A DNA stretch of 64,000 nucleotides from Eledone cirrhosa. Lineage: Eukaryota. The notes below the pieces were generated by a model. That model saw only the letters and a list, made by a program, of their open reading frames with translations, was not told the origin of the DNA and did no database searches. Of the stretch, positions 29,701-32,700 are shown piece after piece. The position numbers and the translations under genes are program-made. Every line of letters starts with the position of its first letter. Position 1 is the first letter of the stretch. The stretch spans positions 85,126,001-85,190,000 of the forward strand of contig OZ024747.1 in assembly GCA_964016885.1 (NCBI GenBank), in the 5' to 3' direction.

Positions 29701-32700
29701 TAGACTCTTTAATCCATGGTAGGAAGATCTATATATAAGTGAGTTTAGATAGAATACTTATTTTGTCTATCTTGTTTGTACTCCCAGAATTAGAGTTTTT
29801 TCTCACTTAATTTTAATATATTGCTTCTCTGAGAGATTTCTCTCATTGAGATGTTTAAGTATTAGAGACTAATTAACTTTTAATTAACTTTAATTAATAT
29901 ATATACATATATACATATATATATATATGGGATAACAAGTTATCATTTTAGGTAATTCAGTTAGAGGTTGTGAGTACTCCGATGATTTGATCAGAGACAC
30001 ACACTGTATTTAAAGTCGTGTAACACAATTTTGAGTGATTAGTGGCCTTTAGACAACATAATCAATGAAACAATTGTTAATACTGTAAATAAAACCCTTT
30101 TTGTACAGCCGACCATGTTATTCTTCACTCTTTCACTACTATATATATATATATAGTAGTGAAACATATATATATATATATATATATGTTTGTTGTGCTG
30201 TCCATAGTTCTCGGAAGGATGTTTTTCTTGCTGGATACTGTTCCAATCACTTATTGAGCACATTCTTCATGTCACCAGCACTAGAAAGGTTCTCTGACTT
30301 AAGGGTCCTCACTACCCTAAATCAATTTTTATTCAGAGAGACTGCTCTCTTAGCTGTGTTGTCTTCTCTACAGCTTACATATCTCATGTCCAGCCTATAC
30401 AAGCTTAGAAAAAGACATAAAACGATGATATATATATATATATATATATAGTTTTAATATAGATGAGATTCTACAGGACTAGAACTGTTTCATTCTTTAG
30501 AAATCATCAGATTCCTGATGATTTCTAAAGAATGAAACAGTTCTAGTCCTGTAGAATCTCATCTATATTAAAACTTTTATACTCTGCAATGTATTGAGTA
30601 CCTTACTTACTGTGGTTACCTCCGATTCAACCTGGAATAACGTATATATATATATATATAGTGCTGGTGGCACGAATAAAAGCACCAAGTCCATGCTTTA
30701 AAGTGGTGTTAGTGATAGGAAGGGCATCCAACCAGTATATTATTAATGCCAAAAAATTATGAGCATATAAAATAATATATATATATATATATGTATATAT
30801 ATATATGTAAATTTGTATATATGTATACATGTGTATGTGTGTATATGTGTGTATATCACAATTGTGATGATACACATTTACATATATATATACATATATT
30901 TAACTCCCCTACACATATTTCCTTTGTCTGACTTTATCCAGGAGGAGGGCATTCAGACTGTGTTGATGAACCCTAACATTGCCTCAGTACAGACAAATGC
31001 TGAAGGGGCCAAACAAGCAGATATTGTTTACTTCCTGCCAATCACAGCAGAATTTGTGACAGAGATCATTAAGAGGGAGCGACCTGATGGTTTACTACTC
31101 TCCATGGGAGGCCAGACAGCACTGAACTGCGGTAAGTACTAAGTGAGCTTTTAGATTGAATAGCTCCTACTTTAGGTTGCATTTTTTCTTTTTAGTCTTA
31201 TATACAATCTATATAATACAAATCAAAATTATAAGAACAGCACCAGAGAACAAAATAGTACAGTAATAGAATAATAGTACATTAGTTTAATGCTTAAAGA
31301 AGTAATAAAAAAAAGTATTAACGTTTTGGATACTAGTCCTTCATCAGAAAAGAAAATGCAGAAAGAAGTGGCTTGTTTGGAGATAGAAAAAAAAGGAAAT
31401 TAATAAAATTTAAAAAAAATCATAAAATCAAAACGTTTAGTCAAAAGTCTGTCATATTAGAAAAAAAAATCTATATACATATCTATTTATACATCTAGGT
31501 TGCAAATTGGCAGAGTGGTTAGAACATCAAATAGAACTCTTTGCAGTATTCATTCTGGCTCTGTGCTATCAGGGTTCAAATCCCACTAAAGTTAACTTTG
31601 CCTTTCATCCTTTCAAAGGTTGATAAAAAGTTACCAATCTAGTACTCAGGTTGATTCTTTCTCACTTCCTTTTTCTCACCTTTTCTCTCCTTTGAAAGAA
31701 AAAAGCTATGTTCACACCAGGAGAAAGGATGGATTCCATCAGAAGTCACGGTCCATATATATGTCAATGCTGGGAGGGAGTTCCAGATGGCCGACATTCC
31801 AAACAAGAAATGACTGAGCATAGTTGTGGTTAGTGCAAGGATTGGACACATGTTAGGTGATGAGAGGAGTATAGAAGAGTATAGGTCAGGAATGTCTGAG
31901 TGGAAATGGCAATACATTCAGCAAACGCTGAAGAGTCCATTGTAGTAACAGTAGAAGAGGCAGAGGAAAGTGACAAGTCTGTGGACTGTCAGAGATTGAC
32001 TCTAAAATGATTAGCCAAGTGATGGTTTATTTGAAAGAAGTCAAATGAAACACCAAAAGAAAACCTATCAGACATTCATTTTCTGCTTAGTTTCAGTAAT
32101 AATAATTGTTTCTACTATTGGCACAAGGCCAGCAATTACCCAGTACATTACTGGTATTTTATTTTATCGACCCCGTAAGGATGAAAGGCAAAGTTAACCT
32201 CGGCGGGATTTGAACTCAGAATGGCAAGGGCCGTAACTCTATGTGTCAAAGCATGGCGTCCGACCCTCTACCGATACTGCCAATTCACCGCTCATTTCAG
32301 TAATAATAATGATTTCTAGTATAGCCACAAGGCCAGTAATTGGGGGGGGGGGGGGGGGGAAAGTCGATTAAATTGACCCCAGTACGTTACTGGTGCTTTA
32401 TTTTATCGACCTCGTAAGGATGAAAGGCAAAGTTAACCTCGGCGGGATTTTAACTCAGATCATAAAGGGCCATAACTCTATGCCACAGAGCATGGTGTCC
32501 GACGCTCCACCGATACTGCCAATCCACCGGCCTAATAATAATAATAATGAAATTATTGTGTACAGTGCTCAGGTGCACTACAACTCATCAAAGGTGCATG
32601 TATAGTACATAGAATAATATTAGGTGTAGTGTTGGCGAATCTCAGGAAGCATGGAGGTTTTAAAGGATGCAGTGTCTGGACAGCTAATAACTGATGCAGG

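Follow-up and report, generated by a model that had tools for sequence, protein, structure and literature searches.

An intronic hammerhead palindrome in Eledone cirrhosa, probably left by twin copying of the capped RNA front of a Penelope-like element

The stretch of DNA analysed here (the window) comprises 64,000 nt of the forward strand of Eledone cirrhosa (GCA_964016885.1, contig OZ024747.1, positions 85,126,001-85,190,000). It contains a hammerhead motif that stands beside its own exact mirror image within an intron, which raises the question of how such a palindrome arises and why it folds back at the base of the motif. Element positions are counted from the A at window 30509, designated +1.

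Comparison of the two arms confirmed the 61-bp perfect palindrome described in an earlier note on this DNA. Positions 30450-30510 and 30515-30575 are reverse complements at 61 of 61 bases around the loop ATTC, the next base being unpaired, and none of 200 shuffled sequences matched the score of the hairpin (-99 kcal/mol, z -24). The minus strand of the inverted arm contains the hammerhead core but not the 5' side of stem I, and the junction of the arms shows no extra G. The (TA)n on either side would mask a target-site duplication, and the one-sided tail continues into an ORF leader in full copies. An assembly artefact, which the note had named as a possible refutation, is unlikely, because the exact junction of the window copy occurs at 307 places genome-wide, junction sequences differ among loci (20 kinds in 24 scored) and contigs from another study's DNA contain strand-switch joints in the element, none of them covering the entire window copy. 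The stub, as we call such short insertions, lies in the intron 5' of the carbamoyl-phosphate synthase exon listed in Table 1 (preceding exon about 29480-29575), with its hammerhead in the sense of the host gene.

Table 1. Positions of the stubs, their parts and the neighbouring host exon in the window
Feature	Position	Strand	Basis or remark
(TA)n target microsatellite, left flank of window stub	30428..30449	.	sequence
Tail-less inverted arm, reverse complement of element +7..+67	30450..30510	-	sequence comparison
Head-to-head junction	30508..30510	+	CAG common to both arms (microhomology)
Type I hammerhead motif	30509..30559	+	sequence and pair counts; activity predicted only
One-sided 68-nt tail, +68..+135	30576..30643	+	between two inferred reverse-transcription start sites
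(TA)n target microsatellite, right flank of window stub	30644..30660	.	sequence
Host exon, carbamoyl-phosphate synthase gene	30942..31133	+	Pfam CPSase_L_D1; best PDB match mitochondrial CPS, E 7e-31
Second stub, older subfamily	about 3395..3576	+	stem I GCUUC/GAAGC, loop II UCCC; TA repeats on either flank
Third stub	50915..51017	-	tail about +55..+131 (50915-50990) and short inverted arm about 50988-51017

The right arm and the loop together have the layout of a type I hammerhead, as previously claimed, with one exception. The CUGANGA core (CUGAUGA, 30515-30521), the GAAA (30534-30537), the NUH site and three helices are all present. Stem I pairs 30509-30514 with 30554-30559 over 6 bp, one more than the note had given; stem III (30537-30552) has 4 bp, and the GUA site at 30551-30553 places the predicted cut after 30553 (element +46). 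The exception is stem II (30523-30532), which has 3 bp and in nearly all copies is closed by a U.U mismatch instead of the usual G-C pair (G10.1-C11.1). A scan of the window against Rfam gave no hammerhead among 62 matches at E<=1. Loop III is palindromic and would allow dimers, the computed energy of the self-duplex being -12.8 kcal/mol against -1.4 kcal/mol for the hairpin.

Covariation was scored in 20 distinct hammerheads, namely the pair from the window and 18 that have native DNA upstream, one per variant type, and 95% of the cells pair. Pair 1 of stem I (outer) changes from A-U to G-C in 3/20 with both sides altered, and pair 3 from A-U to C-G in 6/20 and to U-G in 2/20, while stems II and III are near-invariant and loop II takes many forms. 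The compensatory change reported between the window copies (GAUUC/GAAUC and GCUUC/GAAGC) is thus real; it persists in the larger set, where the outer pair adds a second variable stem I position across subfamilies. As the hammerhead sequences share kinship, these changes represent about two events rather than eleven.

The second stub consists of an inverted arm at about 3395-3452 and a main arm reaching about 3576, the arms being imperfect. Its junction has a 3-nt loop and is offset by about one base from that of the 30450-30575 palindrome; the statement that both copies fold back at the same point therefore holds to within one base and fails as an identity. The third stub has no catalytic core. 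The tail reported as common to all three, including the inverted copy near 50918, was recovered as a 24-nt motif occurring three times in the window (3532, 30596 and, on the minus strand, 50935; 0.00 expected by chance).

Further palindromes occur in the window at 1853-1921, 3112-3173 and 45030-45125. The first two, next to TA repeats, are possible stubs of other families of Penelope-like elements (PLEs); the third is flanked by two SINE copies in head-to-head orientation. An unrelated second family of minimal hammerhead-like motifs is found at 21004 (+), 57261 (+), 31347 (-) and about 50735 (+), two of them decayed; its stem III is a palindromic CG only, and an inverted arm is absent within 140 nt upstream. 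The window also contains three LINE-type reverse transcriptases with long open frames (4217-6901, 10125-11687 and 11997-14158) and, at 59441-61357 (+), an intronless 638-aa frame which we presume to resemble a BTB/BACK-domain protein.

A search of the animal's own genome (3.0 Gb) yielded 1,018 candidates, of which the 30 closest copies were examined. Most show the same mirror flanked by TA repeats. Two copies (L017, L018) extend upstream into a constant sequence; followed across ~3 kb of DNA rich in microsatellites, it leads to the end of a GIY-YIG nuclease. Full reverse transcriptase (RT) and GIY-YIG ORFs start ~180 nt behind the hammerhead and tail at L101, L103 and L105, and the hammerhead and tail recur at the far end of the 3' region at L104, L105 and L106 (3.1 kb in L104). 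A pLTR therefore flanks the ORF on either side, in a partial-tandem arrangement. Judged by this arrangement, the window unit is the end piece (hammerhead and tail) of an autonomous Penelope-like element, inserted in (TA)n, and the inverted pLTR segment that the note had suspected is borne out by both the layout and the full RT-endonuclease ORFs behind the same sequence. Exact matches number 8,046 for a tail 31-mer, 8,938 for a core 27-mer and 5,526 for the native upstream context, and a relaxed core covering the whole group finds 22,135 arms genome-wide; on these counts the window unit is one among thousands of short stubs from a Penelope-type element.

The ORF encodes 714 aa with YRDD at 347 and IVY..YIG at 586. 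Searches with this sequence gave no match in Pfam and none in the PDB; it has 1,313 homologues, some of them annotated PF26215 or PF01541. Hydra-type motifs are found at 38 (RWR), 116 (DKT), 567 (CNCLNKEAC), 667 (CDLC) and 695 (CMH). RWR, DKT and the CxCx5C linker occur in 115, 120 and 115 of 120 homologues, respectively; between GIY and YIG this ORF has C-x8-C, and 0/120 homologues have CxxC there. The features shared with the Hydra clade, as that clade is characterised in PMC8557442, are RWR (RWK-like), DKT, the CxCx5C linker, the absence of CxxC between GIY and YIG, CxxC and CxH around E and N, the presence of a hammerhead and (TA)n targets. By sequence, then, the element carries Hydra-clade protein motifs, on which its clade placement is based. 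It differs in size: owing to a 3.1-kb 3' region, over half of it microsatellite, it measures ~5.5 kb, whereas Hydra elements are given as generally <3 kb (PMC8557442), a trait that is descriptive rather than strict.

Several features of the family were seen alongside. About 1.8 kb of the 3.1-kb 3' region (L104:4737-7837) is TA/TG microsatellite, which is the element's own target type, and other PLEs are inserted into or beside this region at L065, L106 and L102. The ORF at L065 was considered as a partner of the stubs and rejected, since its element represents another PLE family, one that sits within the microsatellite. That element (L065:3637-7203) has an RT-nuclease ORF and a hammerhead-like motif with a U3-A8 core; it likewise shows the order hammerhead, tail, inverted arm, and an 11-nt tail motif is common to both families. 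At L242 (G000:C1:83678001-83688000) the family of the window element forms an ORF-less, retrozyme-like head-to-tail array with nine hammerheads seen, spaced at a period of 1,065-1,113 nt except for a last gap of 1,514; a TATA box, hammerhead, tail and microsatellite are present in each unit. A forward-strand excess of ~2,200-2,500 matches in the core, upstream-context and relaxed-core searches hints at much larger arrays elsewhere.

To locate the 5' ends we used contig C1, where both arms of the first 100 exact matches to the tail were mapped, with none dropped. The ends concentrate at the first base of stem I, at ~30x the background rate in these 100 copies, which represent one young subfamily on one contig with breakpoints set by BLAST, 11 of them extending past the reference. 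The 5'-most extent of either arm fell within -2..+10 in 50 of the 86 copies still at risk (0.059 per nt); the rate was 0.137 per nt in -2..+3, compared with 0.0018 in +11..+93 and 0.0022 in -441..-21. A pile-up at the predicted cut (+46) was also sought, and none of the 100 copies ends there.

Native upstream context, with C at -1, is seen at L017, L018, L101 and L103. Among 118 copies whose upstream DNA is neither inverted nor repeat, 79 have TATA exactly at -30, and the box stays at -29 to -31 in subfamilies with divergent spacer sequence. The sequence around +1 fits what we take to be an initiator pattern. Summed contig depth in another study's DNA (run X2), a rough measure, drops ~7-fold across +1 and ~1,000-fold into the ORF. 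Run X1 gave no match to the window copy and matched L103 in short low-complexity stretches only.

Genome-wide, a base other than C precedes +1 at 2,209 places, and at 1,812 of these it is G; the set includes native copies mutated at -1. The resulting 82% overstates the share of cap copies, because some Gs are accounted for by microhomology, either to the opposite arm or to the complement of stem I. Before other breakpoints G was found in 24 of 158 cases, a rough control that mixes true ends with internal mismatches, and a local control comprised just five arms ending at +1 (three with G), too few alone. Both arms reach +1 at 285 loci. The first 50 of these, inspected by eye, comprised 28 with an extra G on both arms, 15 with a single G/C, which between two arms may equally be the native C, 3 one-sided and 4 native cases. 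The older subfamily, where G may stand at +1, also yielded single extra-G cases (L248, L257, L262). Untemplated 5' G in full-length L1 insertions has been read as a copy of the cap, according to the account in PMC9341517. By analogy, and on the evidence of position, TATA spacing and added base, +1 is likely a capped RNA polymerase II start and the extra G a cap copy; a reverse transcriptase adding C at any strong stop would leave a similar footprint.

The same edge of stem I has been described differently in D. virilis Penelope, where an intron ends at the 5' edge of helix I, so that this position is a splice acceptor and not a start (PMC4209133, PMC2377424, in their treatment of that element). 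A splice acceptor (CAG/AUUCC) would be compatible with our upstream sequence, which is T-rich and ends in CAG. However, the arms retain A+1 and G+2, one subfamily reads GG at +1/+2, so the AG is not conserved, and a constant first exon before stem I, sought upstream of the arms, was not seen. A stall of the reverse transcriptase at the base of stem I would be expected on the 3' side of the helix, where a pile-up is absent. As both splicing and stalling leave the extra G and the TATA spacing unaccounted for, we regard them as very unlikely sources of the pile-up.

An adjacent tail-less inverted arm is present in 62 of the 100 copies and was not detected in 38. Short mirrors make up 52 of the 62, and 46 of these 52 reach -2..+10; kb-sized mirrors exist as well (L063-L065), mirrors occurring at all sizes to several kb. 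For the tailed arm, 100/100 alignments terminate between +131 and +135 (the reference stops at +135), beyond which 95/100 copies continue into a TA repeat and 3/100 into the ORF leader. The outer end of the tail-less arm is at +60, +67 or +73 in 56/62. These arm ends match two internal start sites bounding the tail, such as those that define the tail of the Poseidon element of Anolis carolinensis (PAc) in vitro (PMC11167929). The experiments described there also show that each of the two target strands is cleaved and extended, with uncut RNA as the predominant substrate (PMC11167929).

The two arms agreed in their loop II variant in 29/29 cases, which points to one RNA or one variant per event, later conversion being an alternative. 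This concordance would also be expected if one cDNA folded back on itself, by a 2-3 nt snap-back or a U-turn, and were extended outward to the TA target; the element and the RNA start would be the same. The window junction forms a CAG-ATTC-CTG mini-hairpin whose 4-nt loop fits such a fold-back equally well, and C-W-G junctions are palindromes with a one-base centre. Self-priming has indeed been put forward as the cause of the junction palindromes of EN+ PLEs, there on an antisense template (PMC3846280, as far as its proposal extends), whereas we propose twin priming. A single folded-back cDNA fits poorly with two copies whose arms do not overlap at all (L181, L229) and with 10 of the 62 copies in which the tail-less arm exceeds the tailed arm by >=10 nt on the 5' side. 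The fixed outer ends of the tail-less arm and the in vitro extension of both cut strands from two start sites (PMC11167929) also speak against it, and we consider this route unlikely.

The earlier note had proposed a short mobile unit of its own, whose antisense arm would cage the ribozyme and so permit it to persist in introns, a reading in which the arm is selected for this effect. The 307 copies with the exact window junction, the intronic sense position of the window copy and the very strong cage expected on thermodynamic grounds agree with this idea. Its physical part is upheld as a computed prediction, the upstream arm out-competing the ribozyme fold in host pre-mRNA with -99 against -4 kcal/mol. 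A self-propagating, non-autonomous unit would nevertheless need a promoter, and none is present inside it: TATA lies outside the stub and is lost from short copies. The stub sequence directly precedes full RT-endonuclease ORFs, its junctions and mirror sizes are as diverse as described above, and it thus shows neither the own promoter nor the one fixed structure of a SINE- or MITE-like element. We found no separate mobile unit in these data. Nor is caging supported as the reason for persistence, since short and long copies have the same variant spectrum and 38 of the 100 copies are without a detected arm; the cage reads as a by-product. We thus give the idea of a selected cage hardly any credence.

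Taken together, these observations lead us, with good though not full confidence, to explain the palindrome as a PLE end piece of likely twin origin: the element's protein would have reverse-transcribed the short front of its capped RNA, still uncut, two times, and the resulting copies would have been linked head to head. The nuclease would nick both strands of (TA)n, and each nicked 3' end would prime reverse transcription at one of the two internal start sites flanking the tail. The protein may engage the tail near the RNA 5' end, either in the mRNA leader or in an ORF-less pLTR transcript. Both cDNAs would then run off after 65-135 nt and be joined, either through microhomology of 1-3 bases or with a few bases added; of the many outcomes, the window junction is one that is favoured. 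The fixed fold-back point would follow from the likely capped start of the element RNA at the first base of stem I. As the product has no promoter, the stubs are likely dead ends. Transcripts of the element itself would start with stem I and lack the antisense arm; in the host intron the left arm is transcribed ahead of the ribozyme and would trap it in a 61-bp helix.

The palindrome structure itself is ordinary for Penelope-like elements. An inverted, 5'-truncated pLTR with a one-sided tail is the published insertion layout of EN+ PLEs, and the likeness, so far as PMC3846280 and PMC8557442 describe those units, includes the head-to-head arm, the junction palindrome, a TATA and Inr-like pLTR motif and microsatellite targets. 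The present copies differ from that description in a tail of 68 nt, compared with 30-40 nt, and in the large share of minimal stubs with a fixed 5' end. PAc resembles our element in having the hammerhead just 5' of the two RT start sites that bound the tail, in AT-rich targets and in uncut RNA as template, which for our element is inferred; in PAc, however, the ORF starts inside the hammerhead (PMC11167929). Here the ATG stands at ~+182, behind three short upstream frames in the leader (L103:7118-7299, minus strand), two of which lie 5' of the predicted cut. If the RNA begins exactly with stem I, the cut would remove the cap and these two frames from the mRNA.

Minimal and small PLE hammerheads, as described in PMC4209133, are likewise of type I, lie in the pLTR and have a dimer-capable palindromic loop III, and dual motifs on opposite strands of PLE pLTRs are already mentioned there. 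Ours differ from them in a 3-bp stem II closed by U.U in place of G10.1-C11.1 and in a full 4-bp stem III (PMC4209133). Non-LTR retrozymes, as outlined in bioRxiv 10.64898/2026.07.22.740005, are also pLTR-derived, hammerhead-bearing and non-coding, and L242 forms an array of this kind; retrozymes are head-to-tail arrays, whereas the window copy is a single head-to-head insertion. With the full-length L1 insertions of PMC9341517 the stubs share copying to a capped 5' end and one extra base. The run-off is only 65-135 nt here, target-primed and integrated as a mirror pair, which sets the stubs apart from L1, in so far as its insertions are described in that source, and from retroviral strong-stop DNA. 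Retroviral minus-strand strong-stop DNA likewise results from copying to a capped 5' end and offers an analogy for the stub cDNAs.

The published mechanism of PLEs leaves open the site of the RNA start, whether hammerhead cleavage precedes copying and the origin of head-to-head junctions, as these questions are put in PMC3846280, PMC8557442 and PMC11167929. To these the copies suggest answers, predicting that the RNA has its capped start at a single base, that it serves as template without being cut and that a single RNA variant gives rise to both cDNAs. More generally, we lean towards the view that PLEs routinely integrate "strong-stop" DNA: twin priming would occur near the capped RNA front, the cap would be copied on both strands and the run-off cDNAs would be joined. 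Thousands of fossil reads would then map the promoter to the base, with the RNA beginning at stem I, and twin target priming would be favoured over antisense self-priming. Literature searches covering openly accessible main texts found no cap or strong-stop reading for PLEs. The value of the locus lies in this testable mechanism rather than in the palindrome. For the animal it would mean that the genome holds thousands of perfect hairpins as a side effect of insertion, a putative source that could feed RNA editing or small-RNA pathways.
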